Below, in pieces: positions 18,730 to 50,765 of a DNA stretch of 50,801 nucleotides (position 1 is its first letter; the number at the start of each line of letters is the position of its first letter). Made by a program: the position numbers and the translations under genes. Below the pieces are notes generated by a model. The model was not told the origin of the DNA. It made no database searches and saw nothing but the letters and a program-made list of their open reading frames with translations. This stretch comes from an uncultured Bacilli bacterium. GTDB taxonomy: Bacteria; Bacillota_I; Bacilli_A; RF39; UBA660. The stretch covers positions 1 to 50,801 of the forward strand of contig CALVVJ010000002.1 of assembly GCA_944363835.1 (NCBI GenBank), written 5' to 3'.

Positions 18730-21540
18730 TTATTTTACAACAATATTGACAATTCTTCCTGGTATGACAATTATTTTGACAATCTCCTTACCATCAATAT
18801 GTCTCTTTACATTTTCTTCATTCAAAGCTTTACTCTTAATGCTTTCTTCATCTTCATTAATAGAAATTTTTATTGAAGCTCGAAGTTTACCATTTACTTG
18901 TACACCAATTTCCTTTTCATCATCAATCGTTTTTGCTTCATCATATTTCGGCCAAATGCTTTCACATATTGGTTTATAACCCAATTCTTCATTCAACTCT
19001 TCAGTAATATGTGGAGCAATTGGATTAAGCAAAGTAAGCAATACATGATAATCTTCTCTAGTAATATTTTCTAATTCATCATAAGCATTTGTTAAAATCA
19101 TCAAAGTTGATATCGCTGTATTAAATGACATTGTAACTAAATCGTTTTGTACTTTCTTAATACTTTTGTGAATTATTTTTTCTAAATTCTTGGAATAATT
19201 ATCTCCATCAACTACTTTATCTTTCAAACGAATTACTTTATCTAGAAATCTCTTACATCCCTTTAATGAATCTGTATTCCATGGGCAATCACTTTGATAA
19301 TCTCCCATAAACATTTCATAAACTCGCAATGTATCTGCTCCAAATTCATTAACAATATCATCAGGATTTACTACATTACCTTTAGATTTACTCATCTTTT
19401 GATTATCACTACCAAGTACCATACCATGACTTACTCTTGTCCAAATCATTTCTTTACTTGGAACTAAACCAATATTATATAAAAATTGGACCCAGAATCT
19501 TGCATATAATAAGTGTCTTGCTGTATGTTCCATACCACCATTATACCAATCGACTCTTCGCCAATATTTCATCGCATCCATTCCCGCAAATTCTTTATCG
19601 TTATGTGGATCCATAAATCTTAAGAAATACCAACTTGATCCAGCCCAATTTGGCATTGTATCCGTTTCTCTTTTGGCAGGTCCTCCACATTTTGGACAAG
19701 TTGTATTCACCCAATCCGTAATCTTAGCTAGCGGACTTTCTCCATTGTCTGTAGGTTCATATTCCGCAACATCAGGAAGTAATAATGGCAAATCTTCTTC
19801 ATGCATCGGTTGCCAACCGCAATGTTCACAATAAATCATTGGAATTGGTTCACCCCAGAATCTTTGTCTTGAGAAAATCCAATCACGCATTTTATAATTA
19901 ACTTGTTTTTTACCACACTTATGTTCTTCTAAAAATTCTAACATCTTATTAATTGCATCTTCTTTATTTAAACCATCTAAGAATTCTGAATTAATATGTA
20001 TACCATCGCCTTCCATAGCTCCAGGTTTCATTGCATATTCAAAAGTTTTCTTATGAAGTCCATCGTTTACTTCTGCCATAATAGTACTCTTATCTACCCA
20101 TTCCAAATCAAATTTTTCATCATCATCCAAATTTTGATTATCTTGTTTATTACTTTTTAATTTAAATAAGAAACCTGTAGATTCTATATTAAAGTACTTA
20201 TCTTTATTGTAAGCATAATAATGATGATTTATCTTAGGAAGTTCGCAAACTAATTCAATATCTTTATATCCTGTTTCTTCTCCAATTTCTCGTTTAGCAC
20301 ACTCTATTGCCGTTTCTCCATCTTTAATAGTTCCTCCAATAAACAAACGGCCTCCCATTTCATGCCAATTAATTGTCAAATATTTATCATTATCTTCATC
20401 ATACAATATTGCTACAATCGAATTTTTCTTAGTTTCCCCTTCATGAGGCATTCCTGTTACTTCTTCCAATACTTGAATAATTGGAATATTGAATTTCATA
20501 GCAAACTCATAATCTCGTTCATCATGAGCAGGAACTGCCATAATAGCTCCAGTACCATAACTAGCAAGAACATAATCACTTATATAAATAGGTATTTTAA
20601 CCCCATTCACTGGATTAATAGCATAAGCCCCAGTAAAAACACCTGTTTTTTCCTTATTAAGTTCCGTTCTTTCCATTTCGTTTTTTAATAAGCAAGCTTC
20701 TTTATAGGCCTCTACTTCTTTTTTATGTTCATCAGCAGTTATTACATCCACTAATTTATGTTCTGGTGCAAGTACACAATAAGTTGCTCCAAATAAAGTG
20801 TCACATCTCGTTGTAAACACCGTAAACTCTTCTTCATGACCATCTATTTTAAATGTTACTTCTGCTCCAATCGACTTACCAATCCAATTAATTTGCCCAA
20901 GTTTTACCTTTTCCGCAAAGTTAGTATCATCTAATCCCTTAAGCAAATCTTCTGAATAATCACTCATTCGAAGCATCCATTGACTTTTTTCCTTCTGAAC
21001 AACTTGGGTACCACATCTTTCACATACTCCTCCAGCTGCATCTTCATTAGACAAAACTGTTTTACAATTTGGACACCAATTTACAGGAACTGTATCTTTA
21101 TAAGCCATTCCATGTTTATAAAATTCTAGAAATTGCCATTGTGTCCATTTATAATATTCAGGATCTGTCGTTGAAAATTCTCTATCCCAATCAAAGGAAA
21201 AACCTAAAGTTTGCATTTGTCTTTTAAATGTTTTAATATTTTCCTTTACAGCTTCTTTCGGATGAATATGATTCTTTATCGCATATTGTTCTGCTGGAGC
21301 CCCAAAAGCATCCCATCCCATTGGAAACAAAACATTATATCCTTGCATCCGCATCATTCTAGCCATTGCATCTTGGGCTGTATAACTCCGAACATGTCCA
21401 ACATGAAGCCCTGAACCAGATGGATAAGGAAATTCCACCAAAATATAATAAGGTTCTTTATTACTTCCCGTAACTGCCTCAAAACTTTTATGTTCTTCCC
21501 AATATTTTTGCCATTTTTTTTCTATTTTTTTACTATTCAT
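18730..21540 (-). CDS. leuS: leucine--tRNA ligase with an inserted Nudix-box domain
   Basis: HIGH (LHVGHVRSY), KMSKS (QKMSKSKGN), CP1 motifs TTRCDTLFG and GTGAIMAVPAHDERDYEFA, and YKMRDWIFSRQRFWGEPIP. At 936 aa it has an extra ~150-aa block that includes GTIKDGETAIECAKREIGEETGY. Confidence 0.95.
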   Translation of the reverse strand: MNSKKIEKKWQKYWEEHKSFEAVTGSNKEPYYILVEFPYPSGSGLHVGHVRSYTAQDAMARMMRMQGYNVLFPMGWDAFGAPAEQYAIKNHIHPKEAVKENIKTFKRQMQTLGFSFDWDREFSTTDPEYYKWTQWQFLEFYKHGMAYKDTVPVNWCPNCKTVLSNEDAAGGVCERCGTQVVQKEKSQWMLRMSDYSEDLLKGLDDTNFAEKVKLGQINWIGKSIGAEVTFKIDGHEEEFTVFTTRCDTLFGATYCVLAPEHKLVDVITADEHKKEVEAYKEACLLKNEMERTELNKEKTGVFTGAYAINPVNGVKIPIYISDYVLASYGTGAIMAVPAHDERDYEFAMKFNIPIIQVLEEVTGMPHEGETKKNSIVAILYDEDNDKYLTINWHEMGGRLFIGGTIKDGETAIECAKREIGEETGYKDIELVCELPKINHHYYAYNKDKYFNIESTGFLFKLKSNKQDNQNLDDDEKFDLEWVDKSTIMAEVNDGLHKKTFEYAMKPGAMEGDGIHINSEFLDGLNKEDAINKMLEFLEEHKCGKKQVNYKMRDWIFSRQRFWGEPIPMIYCEHCGWQPMHEEDLPLLLPDVAEYEPTDNGESPLAKITDWVNTTCPKCGGPAKRETDTMPNWAGSSWYFLRFMDPHNDKEFAGMDAMKYWRRVDWYNGGMEHTARHLLYARFWVQFLYNIGLVPSKEMIWTRVSHGMVLGSDNQKMSKSKGNVVNPDDIVNEFGADTLRVYEMFMGDYQSDCPWNTDSLKGCKRFLDKVIRLKDKVVDGDNYSKNLEKIIHKSIKKVQNDLVTMSFNTAISTLMILTNAYDELENITREDYHVLLTLLNPIAPHITEELNEELGYKPICESIWPKYDEAKTIDDEKEIGVQVNGKLRASIKISINEDEESIKSKALNEENVKRHIDGKEIVKIIVIPGRIVNIVVK

Positions 21541-21942: not shown

Positions 21943-22134
21943 AAAAATAAAAAAGATGGTTCCTAAAGGACGAGTTTTCCCGTGGTACCACCTTAATTGC
22001 TTCTTTAATAATTGATAAGGAAATTACCCCAATACATCCAAAAGCAAGTTCAATTATTATGTTCATTAGTTTCCACCAACCACTAATTCTCTATTAAAAC
22101 AATCATAATTTACTACTCTTTTTTCATCTGCTTG
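21943..22134 (-). promoter_or_regulatory. T-box riboswitch leader, Leu (CUU) specifier
   Basis: On the minus strand: Stem I start GCAGATGAAAAAAGAGTAG; AGAGA plus the distal GTGGTTGGTGGAAAC; specifier context GAA-CUU-G (CUU at 22046-22048); T-box AAGGTGGTACCACGG (about 21979-21996). Terminator GGTGGTACC...GGAACCATC is followed by TTTTTTATTTTT (21943-21992). Confidence 0.8.
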
Positions 22135-22140
22135 TAACAT

Positions 22141-28551: not shown

Positions 28552-30204
28552 ATGGAAAATGAAACACCAAACATTACACCAGAAAACACAACTAATACTG
28601 AAAAAAGCAATAAAAAAAAGAAAATTATTATCATCATACTCATCGCTGTCGTTTTAATAATTGCAGCCATACTAGCCTTTTACTTTTTTGTAATTAAGGA
28701 TGATGACAAAAAGCCAGAAAAACCAGAGACTAATAAAGAAGTAGAAGTTATTAATGCCAACTCACCTTATGAAATAACAAGCAACGACTTAGAAGATTTT
28801 GACTTATATTTTTTGCAATTAGAAAATAAAAAAGTTAATAAAATCTATAGTCCGCTTTCAATAAAATATGCTTTAGAAATGCTAGCAGAAGGAGCCAATG
28901 GTAAAACAAAAGAACAAATAACTAATATTTTAGGCAAATACGAAAGCAAAAAATATATTAATAGCAACAATATGTCATTTGCTAATGCTTTATTTATTAA
29001 AAACTCTTATAAAAATTCAATAAAAGCATCTTATACAAACACTTTAAAAAATACTTATAATGCTGAAATACTTTATGACAATTTTGAAAACACCGACGCT
29101 TTAAATGCTTGGATAAACAAAAAAACATTTGGCCTAATTAATAATCTGTTTAATGATATATCTGACTTTGATTTTATCCTAGTTAATTCTTTAGCAATTG
29201 ATATGGAATGGATAAATAAAATCCAAAACCAATACGAAGATTACTTAGTAAAATTTCCTCATGAAAAGAAACTACACCATTATGAAAATGAAACATACGA
29301 ATCATCTTATACTTTCTACATCGAAGCTTTAAATTCTAGCCGTTATCATAAACTAGATTTTGAAAATCTCAACTGCCAAGTAAAATCGGTTGAAATCGGT
29401 GCTGTTGCTAATAAATATGATATTGTAAATATCTTAGGTAAAAATAACATCAAACAAACCGTAGCGAATGCTTATGAAAAATACATAAGTGAAAATCCAG
29501 ACTATCCTTATGATGTTTATGGTGAATCTACTAGTGATTTTGACTCTTGGTTTGAATTATATCTAAAAAGATTAGATAGCAATTACGGTCATATAAGTTC
29601 ATCAACTGATTTTCAATTTTACACTGATGAAAATACTAAAGTATTTGCTAAAGATTTAAAAGAGTATAACGGAACAACTTTACAATATATAGGTATAATG
29701 CCTACAAACATGGATTTAGAAAATTATATCGCTGAATTAGATGCTGACAAAGTAAATAATTTAATTAATAGTTTAAAAACAATCGAACTAAATAGTTTTA
29801 AAGATAATGTAATCACAGAAATAACTGGCTACATTCCCATGTTTCAATTTGAATATGAATTAGATATAGTTAACGATTTAAAAAAATTAGGAATTACTAG
29901 TGTTTTTGATAATACTGCTGATTTATCAAATATAACCGAAGATGATACCTATATTGCTGATGCCAAACACAAAACTAATATAGAATTTTCTAACGATGGT
30001 ATAAAAGCTGCATCCGCTTTAGGTACCGGTGGTACTGGAGAAGCAATCAGTGGATTTGATTATTTATTTGATGTACCTATAGAACAAATTGACTTAACAT
30101 TCAATAAACCTTATCTTTTCATAATTAGAGATAAAGATACCGGAGAAGTATGGTTTACTGGAACAGTATATGAACCATCAAAATATACTGAACAACAATA
30201 TTGA
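28552..30204 (+). CDS. membrane-anchored serpin-family protein
   Basis: N-terminal KKKK plus a TM anchor. Serpin N-terminal block IYSPLSIKYALEMLAEGANGKTKEQI, hinge-like DGIKAASALGTGG, and C-terminal block FNKPYLFIIRDKDTGEVWFTGTVYEP. Confidence 0.85.
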   Translation: MENETPNITPENTTNTEKSNKKKKIIIIILIAVVLIIAAILAFYFFVIKDDDKKPEKPETNKEVEVINANSPYEITSNDLEDFDLYFLQLENKKVNKIYSPLSIKYALEMLAEGANGKTKEQITNILGKYESKKYINSNNMSFANALFIKNSYKNSIKASYTNTLKNTYNAEILYDNFENTDALNAWINKKTFGLINNLFNDISDFDFILVNSLAIDMEWINKIQNQYEDYLVKFPHEKKLHHYENETYESSYTFYIEALNSSRYHKLDFENLNCQVKSVEIGAVANKYDIVNILGKNNIKQTVANAYEKYISENPDYPYDVYGESTSDFDSWFELYLKRLDSNYGHISSSTDFQFYTDENTKVFAKDLKEYNGTTLQYIGIMPTNMDLENYIAELDADKVNNLINSLKTIELNSFKDNVITEITGYIPMFQFEYELDIVNDLKKLGITSVFDNTADLSNITEDDTYIADAKHKTNIEFSNDGIKAASALGTGGTGEAISGFDYLFDVPIEQIDLTFNKPYLFIIRDKDTGEVWFTGTVYEPSKYTEQQY

Positions 30205-30255: not shown

Positions 30256-31050
30256 ATGAACATTTATCAATGTCTTAATGACATAACCAAATATATCGAT
30301 GAACACTTAGAAGAAAAAATCGATTATGAAAAATTAGCTAAATTTATGGGGGTCAATTCTTATACAATGCAAAGGGTTTTCACTATGCTTTGTAATATTC
30401 CTATCGGAGAATATATAAGAAAAAGAAGACTATCGAACGCTGGTGTAGATTTATATGAAAATAATACTAAAGTTATCGATATTGCTCTAAAATACAATTA
30501 TGATAATGCTACATCATTCTCTAGAGCATTTGAAAATTTTCATGGTATTAAACCCAGTCAAGTTACCAAAGAAACCAAATTAAAAATTTTTCCTCGCATC
30601 ACTTTTGCAGAAAATATCCAAAACTATAAAGAAATAACTTATGAAATAATTGAACTACCAGAAATGCATCTATTTGGCATATCTACTCCTAGTAGCAAAG
30701 AAACTATTGAAAAAGATGCCCCAACCTTTTTCAAACAAACATATCAAAAATACAAAAAAATCTACGGTGATATCGATTTTGGCATGATTTCTTATGATAA
30801 AGATAGAGAAAATGTTCAAAAATACTATTGTCTTTACAAAAAATATATACCTAATTTTGAAAAAATTACAATTTCTTCTAGTAAATGGCTAAAATTTCGC
30901 ATAAATTCTCAAGAAGCTCCAGATATAAGAAAAGCATCTCAAGATTTTTATACCAAAATTTTCCCAACATCACCATATAATCTGCGAGAATTACCCGAAC
31001 TAGAACACTATCATGACAATATTACTGATTTTCTTATAGCAATTTATTAG
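30256..31050 (+). CDS. AraC-family regulator with a GyrI-like effector-binding domain
   Basis: HTH_18-like N-terminus (YNYDNATSFSRAFENFHGIKPSQ). About 150 C-terminal aa are typical of GyrI-like/SOUL-type fusions. Confidence 0.8.
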   Translation: MNIYQCLNDITKYIDEHLEEKIDYEKLAKFMGVNSYTMQRVFTMLCNIPIGEYIRKRRLSNAGVDLYENNTKVIDIALKYNYDNATSFSRAFENFHGIKPSQVTKETKLKIFPRITFAENIQNYKEITYEIIELPEMHLFGISTPSSKETIEKDAPTFFKQTYQKYKKIYGDIDFGMISYDKDRENVQKYYCLYKKYIPNFEKITISSSKWLKFRINSQEAPDIRKASQDFYTKIFPTSPYNLRELPELEHYHDNITDFLIAIY

Positions 31051-31086
31051 ACTGACAAAATTGATTTATAAATTGTCAGTTTTTTT
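31051..31086 (+). terminator. rho-independent terminator
   Basis: ACTGACAA-14nt-TTGTCAGT followed by TTTTTTATTTTT. Confidence 0.7.
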
Positions 31087-31132
31087 ATTTTTCCCTCTGT
31101 TATAATTTATCTATAAAAAGGGGGAATAAAAA

Positions 31133-32959
31133 ATGTATACTTATGAAATTTATTTAACAAAAAAATATATACCTAAAAAAGAATGGTTACAATTTATTCA
31201 AACAATTTCCAACTATGCTGGAATTCTTAAAGCGTCACAAATAATAGTAGTTAATAACCAAAATAAATTACAATATTTTCTTAAAATAAATAGACAATTA
31301 CCACCTACTATTAATGGGCTAGATTCATTTTTATTAAAATCCACTACTACTTTAACAGAACCTAAAAAAAGTCTAACATGTCCCATAATTCACTCGATTG
31401 ATAGTAATATTATCGACTTAATCAATTATAATGAAATTAAAAACAAAGGTAATTTAATATTTTTAAACATCACATTTTTAAAACTTTATAAAGATAAAAT
31501 ATTATCTCGTACTAACTATTATGTTAATAAAAATAACCAAATAAAAAAATATCATATAATATTAGGAATACCCGCTAATTTATTAGAAATAAATTTTGAA
31601 AATAACAAAAGATACTTTTACAAATCTATTCCTAAATATTTAGATATAAATAAATTACTACCTTACTTAAGTCCTGATGAGACCAATGCTTTGTTAAAGG
31701 TTAGCACATTTCCTTACTTACCGAATGATCAATACTTAAAAATTACTAACTTTAGTTTTGCCAAACACTCATTAATCATTGGAGCATCTGGATCAGGAAA
31801 ATCAAAATTTATAAGTAAATTAATTTACAATATTACACAAACTAATCCCACCAAAAAAAATTATCGTGTAGTTTTAATTGACCCACATGCCAATTTAGAA
31901 AACGATATCGGAGGTTTAGGACAAGTAATTGATTTTGTTAGCAAATCAATTAATCTTTTTGTTGAAAAATCTACTAACACTTTAGCACAAACTGAACTTT
32001 TACTTGACTTATTTAAAAACCTTATCGCTGATCAATACAACTCTAAATTAGAAAGAGTATTAAGATACTCTATTAACACACTACTCATTTACCAAAACTT
32101 TAATTTTACTAATCTAAAAAAGTTAATTCTCGATATCGATTTTCGTAATCACCTACTTAACACCTTAAAAGACAAACTACCTACCAGTATCATCAACTTC
32201 TTCCTAGCGGACTTTAATGAATTAAAAACCAAATCATATACCGAAGCCATTTCCCCAATAATTAGTTTTATCGATGAATTAGAAATGCTACCAGCATTAA
32301 ATGAAAACACTAGTAACATATCACTGGAAAATACATTGTCTCAAAATTATTTAACTATATTTTCCTTAGATCAAACTAAATTAGAAACTAAAATAACTAA
32401 AACAATTACAAGCCTAATAATGAATCAGATGCTAACACTAATTAGAACCAAAAGTGTTGTTGAGCCTATAATATTCATCATCGATGAAGTAGCAATTATC
32501 GAAAATCCCATTCTTACTCGATTCTTATCTGAAGCACGTAAATATAACCTATCATTAATTTTAGTTAGTCAATATTTTGATCAATTGTCACCTAATTTAA
32601 AAAATGCTATATTTGCAAACACAAGTAACTACTACATATTTAGAACATCAAAGTTAGATGCTACAACTCTTGTAGACAACTTAAATATCAAAATACCTTT
32701 AAATAATACCAGAGAAAATAAAATAGAACTATTAAGCAACTTAAACAATCGTGAATGTATTGTTCGTATTGAAAAAAACGGTAATTTACTTTCTGCTTTT
32801 AAAGCTACAACCTTAAATTATCAAGGCATTCCATACATTAAAAAGAAAAAAACTTTTTCCCAAACAAAAAATAGTTTTTTTAAAGAAAAATCAATTAATT
32901 TCAGCATAAAAACCAACACAACCCCCAAAGATTTAATAATTCCCAATGAAAGCGAGTGA
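31133..32959 (+). CDS. HerA/FtsK-superfamily P-loop ATPase (DUF87-like) with an unassigned ~200-aa N-terminal region
   Basis: Walker A GASGSGKSKF, a HerA-like DPHANLE block, Walker B IIFIIDEVA, then ARKYNLSLILVSQ and NYYIFRTS. TATAAT at 31101-31106 and a GGGGGA RBS. Confidence 0.7.
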   Translation: MYTYEIYLTKKYIPKKEWLQFIQTISNYAGILKASQIIVVNNQNKLQYFLKINRQLPPTINGLDSFLLKSTTTLTEPKKSLTCPIIHSIDSNIIDLINYNEIKNKGNLIFLNITFLKLYKDKILSRTNYYVNKNNQIKKYHIILGIPANLLEINFENNKRYFYKSIPKYLDINKLLPYLSPDETNALLKVSTFPYLPNDQYLKITNFSFAKHSLIIGASGSGKSKFISKLIYNITQTNPTKKNYRVVLIDPHANLENDIGGLGQVIDFVSKSINLFVEKSTNTLAQTELLLDLFKNLIADQYNSKLERVLRYSINTLLIYQNFNFTNLKKLILDIDFRNHLLNTLKDKLPTSIINFFLADFNELKTKSYTEAISPIISFIDELEMLPALNENTSNISLENTLSQNYLTIFSLDQTKLETKITKTITSLIMNQMLTLIRTKSVVEPIIFIIDEVAIIENPILTRFLSEARKYNLSLILVSQYFDQLSPNLKNAIFANTSNYYIFRTSKLDATTLVDNLNIKIPLNNTRENKIELLSNLNNRECIVRIEKNGNLLSAFKATTLNYQGIPYIKKKKTFSQTKNSFFKEKSINFSIKTNTTPKDLIIPNESE

Positions 32960-32964
32960 TAATT

Positions 32965-33663
32965 ATGAATGAAAACTTAGCTTTAGAAATAGCAAACAAA
33001 ATATTTAACAATGTATTTTCTCAAGATAATCCCTATACATTACAAGAATTATTAGAAAAATTAGCCTTCGATATAAAATTACCCAAGTTAGTTTACGATT
33101 CCACAACTAATGAAGCAACTTGGAGTAATTCAAGTAACAGTCTTAAATTTATAACTAACACCAACATGATAAAAAAAGAGACAACTATAGGTTGGATGCA
33201 ACATCCAAAAAAATTAACCAATTTAGATGAAATAATAACCAGCTGGAATAACATTAATTTCACTACTACAGAACGCATATATGATTCATTAAATGTTCTA
33301 AAAAGCGATACAGTATATTCTTCCGAAAACGTTTATAATTCTAATGACTCAAGAGAATGTAAGAATATTATTTATTGTAATTCTTGTGGCAACTGCGAAT
33401 ATACTTTAGCCTGTCAAAGATCTACTAATTGTACCTTTTGTATTCGAACAGATGACTCTCAAAACTGCAGCAATTCTTACAACATTATTTGCTCTAACAA
33501 AATAATAAACTCATTATTTATCCAAGATTGCTCTGATTTATATGAATGTATGTTTTGTGCACATATTTCCTCTAAAAAATATTGTATTGCTAACATGCAA
33601 CTTTCAAAAGAAGAATATTACAAAATAAAAAAAGAAATAATTACTTGGATTTTATCATTCTAA
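32965..33663 (+). CDS. Cys-rich protein of unknown function
   Basis: The start lies 6 nt after the ATPase stop (an alternative GTG at 32956 overlaps it). All 13 Cys fall within residues about 135-210 of the ORF-track protein, in short C-x2-C / C-x-N style repeats. Confidence 0.6.
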   Translation: MNENLALEIANKIFNNVFSQDNPYTLQELLEKLAFDIKLPKLVYDSTTNEATWSNSSNSLKFITNTNMIKKETTIGWMQHPKKLTNLDEIITSWNNINFTTTERIYDSLNVLKSDTVYSSENVYNSNDSRECKNIIYCNSCGNCEYTLACQRSTNCTFCIRTDDSQNCSNSYNIICSNKIINSLFIQDCSDLYECMFCAHISSKKYCIANMQLSKEEYYKIKKEIITWILSF

Positions 33664-33814
33664 AAAAGCACTTACAAAAATTTAAAAAATATGCTATAAT
33701 GAACAACGCAACACAAAGTTAAGGTATTAATTGGAAACGAACATTATGAAAATAATGACTAACGAACAACACTAACAATGTCGTTCTATTTATTTTTAGA
33801 AAGGAGTTTTAATT

Positions 33815-34797: not shown

Positions 34798-34938
34798 CTC
34801 TTACCTCCATCATTAACATATCTCCCTTTATTATATCAGATTCCAAATTCCGACAAAAGGCCTATTTCTTCGACAAAACATGTCAAAATCTCCTATTCCC
34901 ATATCTTTTAATATGTGCTAGTATACATTCCCAAGGAG

Positions 34939-36156
34939 ATGATTAATTTGAAAAAGTTAAAATATTTGTTAATACTTTTACTCTTAATACCTATTGGAGT
35001 AAAAGCAAGCGATACTTATTATATCGCTATGGAAAAAGATGGAGAAGTAGAATATTATCCCTATGAAATAACCAAAGTAAATCATGCCACATACTTTGCC
35101 ATTAGCCCTTTTGAAAATTATGAAATGAAAGATAAGAATTACATCAATAATTTGGCATATGCTAGTTCTTTTAATTCTACAATCGAATATGATGCCGCCA
35201 TTCAAATTTTCATTTGGCAAAACATTCATCCCGACTATAATTTTTATTTAGTTGATGAAAATTATGAGATTTACGATAATAGTGATTATATTAATAGAAT
35301 AACCAACTTATTAAGTAACCTTGATGGAGAAGTTCCTTTTAAAGATGCTACATTTAAACTAAAACCAGGTGAAGAGTTAAAGTTAAGCTCTCCCATTAAC
35401 TTAAACACTTATAATATAAATGCTGATATTCTATTAGATAATTATACAATAAGTCTACAATACGAAGATTTAGGAACATATGTTATTAATTTTACTAATA
35501 AAGATTTTCAATATTATAACGGATTAATAAATGGTACACAATTTAATTATGATCCATTTAAAATAACTATCCAAGTTGATAATTTTATCGATGTTAAAAT
35601 TAATACTTACCTTAATAATGAATTAACTTCCAATAATGTTTTAGTTTGTGACATATTTGAAAATTGTCAAAACGTAACCGAAGACACCATCCGCGTTAAA
35701 ATAGGACAATACAAATTTATTGACCAAATAACCCAAGAAGAAGTTATCTTAAACGTTAATAACAACAACAATTCGGTTACATTCAATCATTATCAAATAT
35801 TTGGTATAAAAACAACTATGCCAATTGATAAAATATGTCAAGATTCCACATGTTATCCCTTTTCGCATCAAAATGATATATACGTTTTTGATAAACCAAT
35901 AACCAATGGTTACTATGAAATATACACTAAAGGGCAAAAAGTAACATACAACTTAAACCTTCTAGAAAATTATAGTAAAGATGATAAATATGGTTTACTT
36001 TATAATATTTCTTATGAAGAAGAAATACATGAAGATATTAAAGATAATAACGATGATATTCCAGAAGAAACTATCTCCGTAAACATACCAGATACCGGTA
36101 TAGTTATCACACAAATTGACAAATATGATATCCCAAAAAGAAGATTATATTTTTAA
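34939..36156 (+). CDS. secreted protein of unknown function
   Basis: Signal peptide KKLKYLLILLLLIPIGVKA. AAGGAG sits immediately before the ATG at 34939, so the in-frame TTG at 34948 (9-nt spacing) may be the true start. Confidence 0.6.
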   Translation: MINLKKLKYLLILLLLIPIGVKASDTYYIAMEKDGEVEYYPYEITKVNHATYFAISPFENYEMKDKNYINNLAYASSFNSTIEYDAAIQIFIWQNIHPDYNFYLVDENYEIYDNSDYINRITNLLSNLDGEVPFKDATFKLKPGEELKLSSPINLNTYNINADILLDNYTISLQYEDLGTYVINFTNKDFQYYNGLINGTQFNYDPFKITIQVDNFIDVKINTYLNNELTSNNVLVCDIFENCQNVTEDTIRVKIGQYKFIDQITQEEVILNVNNNNNSVTFNHYQIFGIKTTMPIDKICQDSTCYPFSHQNDIYVFDKPITNGYYEIYTKGQKVTYNLNLLENYSKDDKYGLLYNISYEEEIHEDIKDNNDDIPEETISVNIPDTGIVITQIDKYDIPKRRLYF

Positions 36157-48542: not shown

Positions 48543-50765
48543 CTATTCATCATCTCCAAAAAAGTCATCAAAAAATTCATCATCACTTATAATATTATCT
48601 CCAATAACTTTACTATCACTATCGACATTAATTTTTGGTGACTCATCTTTAATATTTTCTACATTATTTTGTTTTGGTACTTCCTCAGTTTTAGCATCAA
48701 TATTTTTCTTAAAAGTATCTAAATTAAAATCTTTATTTATATTTCTAGTTTCTATTGGTTTATTAAAGAATTTATTATCACCAAACTCTTCTTTTTTCTT
48801 TGGTATTTCAATATCATCAGTTACTTTAAATAAATTTTCATTTTGCTTCTTCTTTTTTTCTGCTTCCTGACGATCCAATTCTTTAAACTTTTCATCTAAA
48901 TCTTTTAACATACTATCAATATCTAAAGAATTAAAACTACTATTAGGCATATTCATATTATTGTTTCCAAAAGTACCAAAGGAATTATCTACAGGTCTAA
49001 ATGGATTTGTAGGGCCCATACCAGCTGGTTTTACATTAGCCATCTTCTTACTTTTTTCTTCAGTAACAAATTTTTTCAAATCAAATATTTCTACTTCTTG
49101 CTTAATTCTTGATGGATATGGTTCTTCTCTTCTTTCAATTCCCCATTCCATTTTAAAATCTGGTTCTAACTTAGTTCTAAAAGGATCTGTTCTAAGTCTT
49201 TTTATTATAGCTTCAAAAAGTTTCATCTTTTGCAAATCAGTTACTGTAATAAGTGGCCTTGTTGCATTTTTATCTTTATCATCAGTTACTTTTACTTCTC
49301 CACACATCTTAGATATTTCTTCTAACGCTTTCATTTCTGTACTGATTAAGTATACTAAATTACCACAGTTCCCTTTGATAATTTCTGCTACATTATCCCC
49401 ATACACATCATTAAGTTGGGCAAAGTTTTGAATAATAAATGTAAATCTGATATCTCTGCTTCTTGCTGCAGATACCATCGCATCAACATCTTTAAGTGGT
49501 GGCATATTGGCAAATTCATCGAGAATAAAATTAGTTCTATACGGTAGCTTTCCACCATTTTCTTGTGCAACATCAATTAGTGTTTCATAACATTGTTTAA
49601 TAAAAATAGTCATCAAACTATGATATGTTTTCTTTTCATCGTGAATAATCATGAAAACTGCTGTTTTACCATTTCCAATATCCCGCATGTTAAAGTCGCT
49701 ATAAGAAAGCATTTCACTTAGAGCTTCTCCAGTTGAAAAGTTTCTTATCTTTTGCCTAAAAGTTGCAAGTAAACCACCCTTAGTATCATTCGGAGCATTG
49801 ATAGTACTTGTTGCAAATATATAAGGTGTCGATTTTTCGCCTTTAAGTCCAAAATACTCTTTTATATAATTACTTGTTGCATATCTTTCTTCCCCAACAG
49901 CACTCATATAGTTAATACTATTTAAATTAACTTCTCTTTCTTTAGCATCTTCAAATAAACCTAAAGCCAGTCCCGAAAAATAGTCTGCAGCAGATTTTTC
50001 CCAGAAATCTGATTCCGATTTATTACTTGGGTCATACAAAATATTTAATGCAACGTCATTTAAAAGTTCAATAGCTTTATCTTGATTCCCACTTGTATAA
50101 TACTTATATGGTAAAGTTAATGGATTCCAAGAATTACCTCTTTGTGGTTCCCGAAAGTTAAGAACAATTATTCTATATCCTCTTTCTTTTAAATAAGAAG
50201 CACTATATTTATATATTTCTCCTTTAGGGTCCGTAATAATCATACTTTCGCCCTTTTTAGCAAGTAAATTAACCATTGGTTTAACAATAGTTTGTGTTTT
50301 ACCACTACCAGTAGAACCAATTACCAAGTTATGATATTCTCCATTATCAACCCATATTTCTTTACCATTATTAATTAAAGGAATACCTGCAGCATCTAAT
50401 GTATCACTCAAAGGATTAACTTTAACAACATTTTCTTCACCTTTAATATCTTTTTCATTTGCCCATTTAGAATAACCATCGCTAGATTTACCTTTAAATA
50501 TCAAACCTACACCATGACTCCCTTTATCCTTTTTAAATATATAACTTGATACACTTGAAAATATTGCTACTAAAGCCCCAATAAAAAGTATTAATGTTAC
50601 TGGTAAATAAGCACCAGTAAAAGCTTTAAATGGAAGTAAACCATAAAATCTACCTTCTTGAGCTAAAGAAGACAAATTTAAAACTGCTATAGCACAAAGA
50701 TATAACAATAAACCACAATAAATACAAAATAACAAAAAGTCCTTTGGTTCAACTTTAAATTTCAT
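48543..50765 (-). CDS. VirD4/TraG-family type IV coupling protein homolog with a long low-complexity C-terminal tail
   Basis: Two N-terminal TM helices. Walker A GSTGSGKTQT, ITDPKGE, Walker B FILDEFANMPPL, RSRDIRFTFIIQNFAQL. About 190 Lys/Glu/Asp/Asn-rich C-terminal residues. Confidence 0.85.
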   Translation of the reverse strand: MKFKVEPKDFLLFCIYCGLLLYLCAIAVLNLSSLAQEGRFYGLLPFKAFTGAYLPVTLILFIGALVAIFSSVSSYIFKKDKGSHGVGLIFKGKSSDGYSKWANEKDIKGEENVVKVNPLSDTLDAAGIPLINNGKEIWVDNGEYHNLVIGSTGSGKTQTIVKPMVNLLAKKGESMIITDPKGEIYKYSASYLKERGYRIIVLNFREPQRGNSWNPLTLPYKYYTSGNQDKAIELLNDVALNILYDPSNKSESDFWEKSAADYFSGLALGLFEDAKEREVNLNSINYMSAVGEERYATSNYIKEYFGLKGEKSTPYIFATSTINAPNDTKGGLLATFRQKIRNFSTGEALSEMLSYSDFNMRDIGNGKTAVFMIIHDEKKTYHSLMTIFIKQCYETLIDVAQENGGKLPYRTNFILDEFANMPPLKDVDAMVSAARSRDIRFTFIIQNFAQLNDVYGDNVAEIIKGNCGNLVYLISTEMKALEEISKMCGEVKVTDDKDKNATRPLITVTDLQKMKLFEAIIKRLRTDPFRTKLEPDFKMEWGIERREEPYPSRIKQEVEIFDLKKFVTEEKSKKMANVKPAGMGPTNPFRPVDNSFGTFGNNNMNMPNSSFNSLDIDSMLKDLDEKFKELDRQEAEKKKKQNENLFKVTDDIEIPKKKEEFGDNKFFNKPIETRNINKDFNLDTFKKNIDAKTEEVPKQNNVENIKDESPKINVDSDSKVIGDNIISDDEFFDDFFGDDE

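Follow-up and report, generated by a model that had tools for sequence, protein, structure and literature searches.

Soluble ATPases of the HerA type, as in the HerA-NurA assemblies of archaea and Deinococcus and the HerA-SIR2 (Nezha) and HerA-DUF4297 systems, carry a non-ATPase N-terminal domain and are encoded beside a dedicated partner. The VirD4/TrwB coupling proteins, exemplified by Cagbeta-CagZ, are a second point of reference, and a survey of Patescibacteria recorded 5,713 VirD4-like homologues, nearly all of them encoded away from virB4 and one of them non-essential, for which exaptation was proposed and no solenoid partner was described (PMC12102498). The subject of the present analysis is a pair of adjacent genes at 31133-33663 on the forward strand of a 50,801-nucleotide stretch of DNA from an uncultured Bacilli bacterium (contig CALVVJ010000002.1 of assembly GCA_944363835.1; the whole stretch is referred to below as the window). 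These genes encode an ATPase and a second protein, here termed the partner. The pair is confirmed as genuine and uncharacterised, consisting of a HerA/VirD4-type ATPase with a dedicated new partner family, and comparison across genomes shows it to be a conserved, tightly linked motor-plus-solenoid module, which is carried on the chromosome, can be dispensed with and has a transcription factor beside it. Among published observations the Patescibacteria survey comes nearest; no description of the pair was found in the literature on archaeal dark matter, type IV pili, type IV secretion systems (T4SS) or Saccharibacteria transposon sequencing.

A conserved two-gene module

The two genes and their recognisable parts are the following (pLDDT is the predicted local distance difference test score of the AlphaFold models):

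31133-32959, + strand: ATPase gene, 608 residues, confirmed by the list of open reading frames (ORFs)
31133-31750, + strand: beta-rich N-terminal domain of the ATPase (residues ~1-206), family-specific, no Pfam match
31781-31807, + strand: Walker A motif GASGSGKSK (residues 217-225), with G217, G220, G222 and K223 invariant in bacteria and archaea
31979-32344, + strand: TrwB-like all-alpha insertion (residues ~283-404), helices at pLDDT 80-90, with a TrwB_AAD_bind match and TrwB as top Foldseek match
32468-32491, + strand: Walker B motif IIFIIDEV, with D451 and E452 invariant
32965-33663, + strand: partner gene, 232 residues from its ATG, unclassified family, 13 Cys
32965-33264, + strand: N-terminal alpha/beta domain of the partner (residues 1-100), pLDDT 70-90, with conserved FAFDIxLP and Trp residues
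33277-33603, + strand: predicted beta-solenoid (residues ~105-213) with a Ser/Cys-Ile/Val core ladder at each third residue, containing all 13 Cys
33604-33660, + strand: C-terminal helix KEEYxxIKxxI (residues 214-232), modelled as a helix over 215-231, with E217 and Y218 conserved

A first-pass annotation, made from the letters of the sequence, had proposed a two-gene operon here, and both ORFs are present as it described them. The partner ORF ends at 33663 and encodes 235 residues if read from a GTG at 32956 or 232 if read from the ATG at 32965; the ATG is taken as the start because Met1 aligns with the starts of homologues in every alignment, and the GTG is an artefact of the ORF caller. Thus, of the two starts originally offered, 6 nucleotides downstream of the ATPase stop or overlapping it by 4, the downstream one stands, with a gap corrected to 5 nucleotides, a spacing that suggests that translation of the partner is probably coupled to that of the ATPase. 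Searches recovered 2058 homologues of the ATPase and, for the partner, 693 homologues by a word-indexed search and 440 representatives at 50% clustering by an exhaustive search, every named member of the partner family being annotated 'hypothetical protein'. With hundreds of full-length homologues for each protein, the pair is more than two chance ORFs.

A search of species-representative genomes placed the partner in 23 related loci, a weak and partial 24th match being excluded, and wherever upstream DNA exists in these loci the ATPase was located by tblastn and ORF clustering immediately upstream on the same strand. The co-occurrence across genomes that the proposal of a system implied is therefore observed, the ATPase immediately preceding the partner at 29 of the 31 bacterial loci that are informative and recurring beside the archaeal arrays described below. 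Gaps between the two genes range from -4 to +12 nucleotides, the partners are 40-78% identical to that of the window and the surrounding neighbourhoods are unrelated; partners at 40-51% identity keep the arrangement beside UvrB/GatCAB, RecX, a LexA-like gene or DeoC. Only three gene clusters recur around the partner, namely the partner itself, the ATPase and an AraC/GyrI-like regulator, a homologue of which precedes the ATPase at 13 related loci of the gut-Bacilli clade. The partner is more conserved than the ATPase (52-78% versus 40-75% identity). Both exceptions to the linkage, L020 (8001-8516) and L021 (8001-8447, with an assembly gap upstream), are N-terminally truncated partner remnants without an ATPase, and in another case, P0323, the ATPase N-terminus up to Walker A is joined to the last 68 residues of a partner by an internal deletion across both genes. 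These truncated remnants and the deletion fusion indicate that the pair is a single unit that is lost together and is dispensable. Further decay products (P0322, P0268 and P0243), in which partner C-termini are fused to unrelated ORFs, were seen among the decayed copies.

The number of partner genes per ATPase varies. Two loci (L025 and L026) contain three tandem partner paralogues after one ATPase, 50-67% identical to each other and with 6 Cys each, and one member of this cluster is labelled Candidatus Saccharimonadales. Family members of ~525 residues are head-to-tail fusions of two whole units, and one of these double-unit proteins is that of a Candidatus Micrarchaeota archaeon. When metagenomes were scanned with the double-unit forms as seed, 76 loci were obtained; their arrays, in which single and double units are mixed, run to as many as 7-8 partner genes in a row. 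In 11 archaeal loci the arrays have ATPase orthologues (hidden Markov model (HMM) E-values of 1e-46 to 1e-54) at their flank, and such orthologues stand beside 7 of the 8 arrays for which both flanks are visible. The recurrent neighbours of these archaeal arrays are again regulators, of the archaeal-type TrmB, AsnC and HTH_10 families, and a MarR regulator is also seen beside them. Since one ATPase can serve one partner (in the window clade), three (in the Saccharimonadales-labelled lineage) or up to ~8 (in archaeal contigs), the partners would act as exchangeable adaptors or clients and not as fixed catalytic subunits.

The clade of the window is made up of AT-rich gut metagenome-assembled genomes (MAGs) labelled uncultured Bacilli or Tenericutes, Mycoplasma sp. 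CAG:776 or Candidatus Onthousia, and is presumably RF39-like. Some AT-rich contigs that carry the trio of AraC, ATPase and partner genes (L001, L003, L006, L010, L013 and L018) are titled 'uncultured Muribaculaceae bacterium' and are probably mislabelled MAGs; record titles are unreliable for taxonomy here because this Bacilli-type trio stands on Muribaculaceae-titled contigs.

The ATPase and its partner protein

All five motifs first quoted for the ATPase (GASGSGKSKF, DPHANLE, IIFIIDEVA, LSLILVSQ and NYYIFRTS) are present, and its description as HerA/FtsK-like is borne out by a DUF87 match above the Pfam cutoff and by Foldseek matches to TrwB, HerA and VirB4. In Pfam, DUF87/HerA (PF01935) covers residues 209-432 at 31.5 bits (cutoff 23.2), TrwB_AAD_bind reaches 29.9 bits (cutoff 20.5) and TraG-D_C 25.8 bits (above cutoff); FtsK_SpoIIIE (PF01580) is borderline, at 24.7 bits versus a cutoff of 24 and over only 63 residues around Walker A, and T4SS-DNA_transf (PF02534) gave no match at E<=1. 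NCBIfam models match the P-loop region only and fall far under their cutoffs, with HerA_antiphage (NF042943) at 15.9 bits versus a cutoff of 800. The AlphaFold model is moderate (pLDDT 63.8), its core and the helical insertion at 283-404 reaching 80-90, and the Foldseek ranking is headed by TrwB (9e-9), followed by Cagbeta (5e-7), HerA, VirB4 and the SIR2-HerA and DUF4297-HerA complexes. For the ~200 residues before the motor, in which the first-pass annotation could assign no motif, there is indeed no family match: neither a HAS-barrel nor any other Pfam domain was found in residues 1-200 at E<=1, and the model of this region is low-confidence, its beta-strands being placed with low to moderate confidence, so that a likeness to the HAS-barrel in fold may have gone undetected. 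No transmembrane segment was found in the ATPase (no 19-residue window with a Kyte-Doolittle value >= 1.6) or in any family member.

Aligned with its orthologues in archaeal contigs and in bacteria, among the latter a Saccharimonadales-type lineage, the window protein shows identities of 23-39% across the full length, including the N-terminal domain, which aligns full-length with the archaeal and Saccharimonadales orthologues. In addition to the Walker motifs, the HerA-like D250-P251-H252, E467/R469/K470, Q480/Y481/Q484 and an R-E-C-x-x-R motif are invariant. The alignment shows the ATPase to belong to a distinct orthologous family, predicted to be soluble, in the FtsK-HerA-VirD4 superfamily, with catalytic motifs that appear intact. 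A control is available within the window, which also encodes a canonical type IV coupling protein (T4CP):

48543-50765, - strand: canonical VirD4/TraG coupling protein; T4SS-DNA_transf match at 6.8e-54 (183.9 bits), two N-terminal transmembrane helices

This protein aligns with the ATPase over the Walker A region only and is not detected by the HMM of the ATPase family, and because it differs in this way the ATPase is placed in a separate soluble family between HerA and VirD4. The canonical T4CP lies 15 kb from the pair, with housekeeping genes between, at the window edge; its visible neighbours are housekeeping-looking (DapF-like, MscS-like and DedA-like), and any T4SS or relaxase belonging to it would be past the window end.

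The partner, as had been supposed, resembles no characterised family. Pfam, NCBIfam and PADLOC contain no match to it and PHROG a marginal one, and there is nothing significant in the PDB either by sequence or by family profile, and nothing significant when its model is compared by Foldseek with the PDB and BFVD; a SIR2 match in the PDB (E=0.46) and a RACK1 match were rejected as noise. Repeat families of Pfam of whatever kind, the hexapeptide left-handed beta-helix (LbH) and the pentapeptide included, were found neither in the partner nor in 20 distant relatives, and its repeat register has a period of 3, unlike the LbH pattern. The power of Ser/Cys at period 3 corresponds to z=74 for the family as a whole and to z=15 for the window protein by itself, register 0 of the solenoid is 85% S/C/I/V/L with an entropy of 1.40 bits versus 2.0-2.4 in the other two (p=1.6e-5), and the register following the core ladder is Asn- and Asp-rich. 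The solenoid suggested by the first-pass annotation gains support from this period and from the composition and entropy of register 0, and the Cys units that it called quasi-periodic prove to be periodic, in a strict period-3 register rather than a loose one. The partner would accordingly be built, as far as periodicity and conservation indicate, from an alpha/beta domain, a narrow beta-solenoid of ~100 residues and a conserved cap and helix. Its AlphaFold model is moderate (pLDDT 68.5), with short strands, and is acceptable over residues 1-150. The C-terminal segment is the most conserved part of the family, with F197, C198, C207, I208, N210 and Q212 conserved in the cap (residues 185-213). 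The partner proteins have no signal peptide or transmembrane segment, and the window protein looks non-enzymatic. Domain fusions among family members of odd length are decay products, chimeras or whole-unit duplications and none is informative. The only architecture observed in the family other than duplication is that of P0375 (552 residues), a Cys-rich repeat with CxxC...CxxC zinc-ribbon-like motifs at both ends.

The 13 Cys all lie in residues 132-207 (nucleotides 33358-33585) and none in residues 1-131, so that both the Cys-free first ~130 residues and the Cys-rich C-terminal stretch reported initially are real. The metal-binding or disulfide-rich meaning then attached to them is unsupported, because the ladder Cys alternate with Ser across the family. 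In an alignment of 37 diverse single-unit members, the only invariant residues are M1, C207 and N210, and the only conserved Cys are C207 (37/37) and C198 (35/37). Position 138 is Cys in 11 members and Ser in 25, position 150 is Cys in 9 and Ser in 23, the remaining Cys positions of the window protein are Ser in most relatives, and the Cys count per member ranges from 4 to 13. The archaeal double-unit forms have Ala at the equivalent of C207 and, in the first unit, Ser at the equivalent of C198, while the close clade conserves C159, C168, C195, C198 and C207 at 90% or more. Judged by these substitutions, the many Cys of the window clade are Ser-equivalent, core-filling residues and there is no conserved metal site. 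A striking Cys count in one lineage can, in other words, be the Ser-equivalent core ladder of a repeat fold.

Genomic context and competing explanations

Immediately upstream of the pair lie the following features:

30256-31050, + strand: AraC-family regulator with a GyrI-like/Cass2 effector-binding domain (Pfam HTH_18 1.2e-15, Cass2 2.4e-10, GyrI-like 9.5e-9)
31049-31094, + strand: hairpin and U-run after the AraC gene, with a 10-bp stem (31049-31082), a folding energy of -9.3 kcal/mol and z -2.5 versus shuffles
31101-31106 and 31120-31124, + strand: TATAAT -10 box and GGGGG Shine-Dalgarno sequence before the ATPase start, read from the sequence

The hairpin and U-run plausibly form the intrinsic terminator of the AraC gene. 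The promoter and upstream terminator claimed for the operon thus exist as sequences, but both calls are at consensus level only, and a generic promoter scan returned a site count not above that of shuffled sequence.

The wider neighbours in the window are a GH31 glycosidase, an aminoacyl-tRNA synthetase, a Mur ligase, tRNA-Gly, a phosphodiesterase and a serpin, with the AraC gene, a DUF2798 gene, a GNAT and an adenosine deaminase closer to the pair. The neighbourhood had been described as accessory-like and tRNA-linked, a description that finds no support, as the tRNA-Gly is 3.9 kb upstream of the pair and neither an att-like repeat of it, nor an integrase, nor a compositional (GC) break around the pair was found in the window. 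Across related loci, 101 bacterial neighbours and, in the archaeal loci, 102 neighbours are housekeeping genes, with no recurrent defence, integrase or conjugation family. The framing of the pair as a defence system hence finds no contextual support, and its separation from any conjugation locus is upheld, no relaxase, VirB4 or T4SS genes being present among its neighbours in the window or among the 101 neighbours in related loci. By tblastn, neither protein matches any of 50,697 phage and 72,556 plasmid records, and neither has a match in 2.9 million viral contigs (IMG/VR); PHROG gives weak matches to phrog_5156 (7e-19, ATPase) and phrog_15341 (3.9e-4, partner). The best PADLOC match of the ATPase is mad8 (PDLC04140; 6.7e-18), a profile that also matched four unrelated neighbour proteins, including a 161-residue AAA_18 protein. 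An identity with mad8 of MADS was rejected, the profile being non-specific and no other mad genes lying near; PDLC04140 appears to act as a generic P-loop detector that could give false defence calls.

Several features of these loci were recorded in their own right. AbiEi/AbiEii toxin-antitoxin pairs lie between or beside partner genes in three archaeal metagenome loci (L033 3970-5323, L041 3728-5076 and L056 9107-10329). In the window, a LeuRS of 936 residues (18730-21540, - strand), preceded by a T-box leader (21963-22136, - strand), has a NUDIX insert at residues 374-487 (1.2e-11) just after the editing domain, which looks unusual. The serpin (28552-30204, + strand, 550 residues) has an N-terminal hydrophobic anchor, with a Kyte-Doolittle peak of 3.7 at residues ~25-43, by which it would be membrane-tethered, in a gut Bacilli MAG lineage. 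Downstream of the pair, a leader of ~150 nucleotides (33664-33814, + strand) precedes the DUF2798 membrane-protein gene and contains a TATAAT with a TG extension (33671-33700) and, ahead of a U-run, a GAACGA...TCGTTC hairpin; the leader has no Rfam match and its folding energy is no better than that of shuffles. A 413-residue protein (34915-36156, + strand) with a signal-like N-terminus and no Pfam match has a counterpart of 46% identity near the pair in L002.

The explanation preferred here, tentatively and with slightly less than even confidence, is that the pair constitutes a regulated, dispensable cytoplasmic module of a motor and an adaptor or client, whose substrate is probably nucleic acid. 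On the pattern of HerA-NurA, HerA-SIR2 and Cagbeta-CagZ, the ATPase would form a hexameric ring, to which the partner may dock via the N-terminal domain and/or the conserved C-terminal cap. ATP hydrolysis would then power the translocation or remodelling of a polymer, for which DNA is the likeliest candidate in view of the superfamily, with the solenoid acting as an interchangeable adaptor, specificity module or client and not as an enzyme. The adjacent regulator would switch expression, in the window through an AraC protein with a small-molecule-binding GyrI-like domain. Several observations weigh against this explanation. Many double-unit partner genes of archaea are solitary, with no ATPase within 8 kb, so that partners may also act alone; nothing found is specific to DNA as the substrate, and a DNA-repair association suggested by the UvrB, RecX and LexA neighbours was not upheld in further loci. 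Both structural models are only moderate and the Cys-rich stretch 157-202 of the partner model is below 50 pLDDT, so the solenoid fold rests on sequence periodicity. Finally, the organism range derives from few named records, and the apparent bias towards reduced-genome lineages is provisional because most clusters carry no taxon name.

Among the alternatives, it is unlikely that the pair is a HerA-plus-effector system for defence against phages or plasmids, in which the solenoid protein would be a new sensor or effector. The fold of the ATPase is similar to that of defence HerAs and there are weak PADLOC HerA matches, the module is dispensable and repeatedly decayed, its partner paralogues are amplified and diverged, and AbiEi/AbiEii pairs are interleaved with partner genes in three archaeal loci. 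However, neither the bacterial nor the archaeal neighbours are enriched in defence or mobile-element genes, the HerA_antiphage score is a small fraction of its cutoff and the mad8 match is non-specific, no effector signature (nuclease, NADase or other) is seen in the partner, whose conservation exceeds that of the ATPase, which is unusual for a defence effector, and the AraC-ATPase-partner trio is stably inherited across the clade. It is distinctly unlikely that the ATPase is an exapted orphan T4CP that recruits solenoid proteins, by their conserved C-terminus, to a distant secretion or transfer apparatus, a scenario that could be relevant to host-dependent lifestyles. The ATPase has no N-terminal transmembrane anchor, of which the canonical T4CP has two helices, and no T4SS-DNA_transf match where the canonical protein scores 184 bits, the two having only the Walker A region in common; no conserved membrane or channel gene stands beside the pair, the partners have no signal peptide or transmembrane segment, and the module occurs in archaeal contigs in which no T4SS context was observed. 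This scenario nevertheless draws on the top-ranking folds (TrwB and Cagbeta) and the TrwB-type all-alpha domain, on a one-motor-many-partners pattern that resembles effector arrays, on the C-terminus being the most conserved part of the partner, on the canonical T4CP in the window, by which the genome may have a T4SS, and on the VirD4-like homologues of Patescibacteria encoded away from virB4, for which exaptation was suggested (PMC12102498). A mobile-element or provirus remnant, combining an FtsK-like packaging or transfer ATPase with a structural protein, would agree with the weak PHROG matches and with flanking genes that differ between genomes, but is largely refuted by the absence of matches in phage and plasmid records and viral contigs and by housekeeping surroundings with no integrase, att repeat or compositional break.

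Two further alternatives concern the partner itself. In analogy with bactofilin, the solenoid proteins would self-assemble end-to-end into cytoplasmic filaments or scaffolds, for which the ATPase would be an assembly or remodelling factor. The regularity of the solenoid and its conserved caps, the tandem fusions of whole units and the arrays of paralogues, which would suit hetero-polymers, the lack of a catalytic signature and the high sequence conservation are all consistent with this idea, which is nonetheless improbable: the partner has no homology to bactofilin or to any known filament former, the module is dispensable, and remodelling of a cytoskeletal polymer is not known for any FtsK/HerA-type ATPase. 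It is very improbable that the partner functions through its Cys as a metal-binding (Zn or Fe-S) or disulfide-rich protein. The presence of 13 Cys within 76 residues and the retention of five in the close clade would fit, and C195-x2-C198-x-H200-x6-C207 could bind one Zn in the window clade, yet family-wide only C198 and C207 persist amid ladder Cys that swap with Ser and variable counts, archaeal units have replaced both residues (C198 in the first unit), and disulfides are unlikely because the protein, having no signal peptide, is cytoplasmic. Beyond the preferred reading of a regulated motor with adaptors or clients, a broader and rather unlikely proposal is that the pair represents an unrecognised class of ATP-driven system common to prokaryotes that have reduced genomes and depend on hosts (RF39-like gut Bacilli, Saccharimonadales and DPANN-type archaea); a diversifying repertoire of beta-solenoid proteins would be assembled, remodelled or delivered by its soluble VirD4/HerA-like motor.

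Comparison with known systems

In common with HerA assemblies, the ATPase is soluble, carries a non-ATPase N-terminal domain, has a DPH motif after the Walker A strand, matches DUF87 above cutoff, finds HerA structures in Foldseek and has a dedicated partner encoded beside it. Unlike HerA, it has no HAS-barrel match, contains a TrwB-type all-alpha insertion and falls far under the HerA_antiphage cutoff. The partner also differs from NurA, SIR2 and DUF4297, being a predicted solenoid with no nuclease or NADase fold and present in 1 to ~8 copies, and the pair is without the defence-island context of HerA defence systems. MADS is an 8-gene operon to which the likeness is confined to P-loop ATPase similarity with mad8, no other mad genes being found beside the pair. 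As regards FtsK/SpoIIIE, the motor-domain match is borderline and confined to the surroundings of Walker A, and the ATPase has no transmembrane segment.

For the partner, a parallel is offered by a narrow beta-helix with Cys or Ser in the core at each third residue, as in the Tenebrio antifreeze protein, a resemblance that serves as a lead only and not as homology. The two share Cys/Ser at each third position, a six-residue Cys spacing and an Asn/Ser/Thr-rich surface. However, no homology is detectable by PDB profile search or Foldseek, and the partner is cytoplasmic, with Ile/Val in its ladder and an additional domain at either terminus. The partner family is a new one, with at least 440 representatives at 50% clustering, and is tied to one ATPase family in bacteria and archaea.

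VirD4/TrwB coupling proteins such as Cagbeta provide the best structural matches to the ATPase, together with the TrwB_AAD_bind and TraG-D_C families, and most VirD4-like homologues of Patescibacteria are likewise encoded away from any virB4. The ATPase differs from VirD4/TrwB in having no transmembrane anchor, T4SS-DNA_transf domain or nearby relaxase or T4SS genes, and in being found also in archaeal contigs. If the ATPase family is among the orphan VirD4-like set of Patescibacteria (PMC12102498), the solenoid partner would provide an experimental handle on that set and, were the proposal of a new class of ATP-driven system to be true, the orphan T4CP genes of Patescibacteria would gain both a function and a partner.

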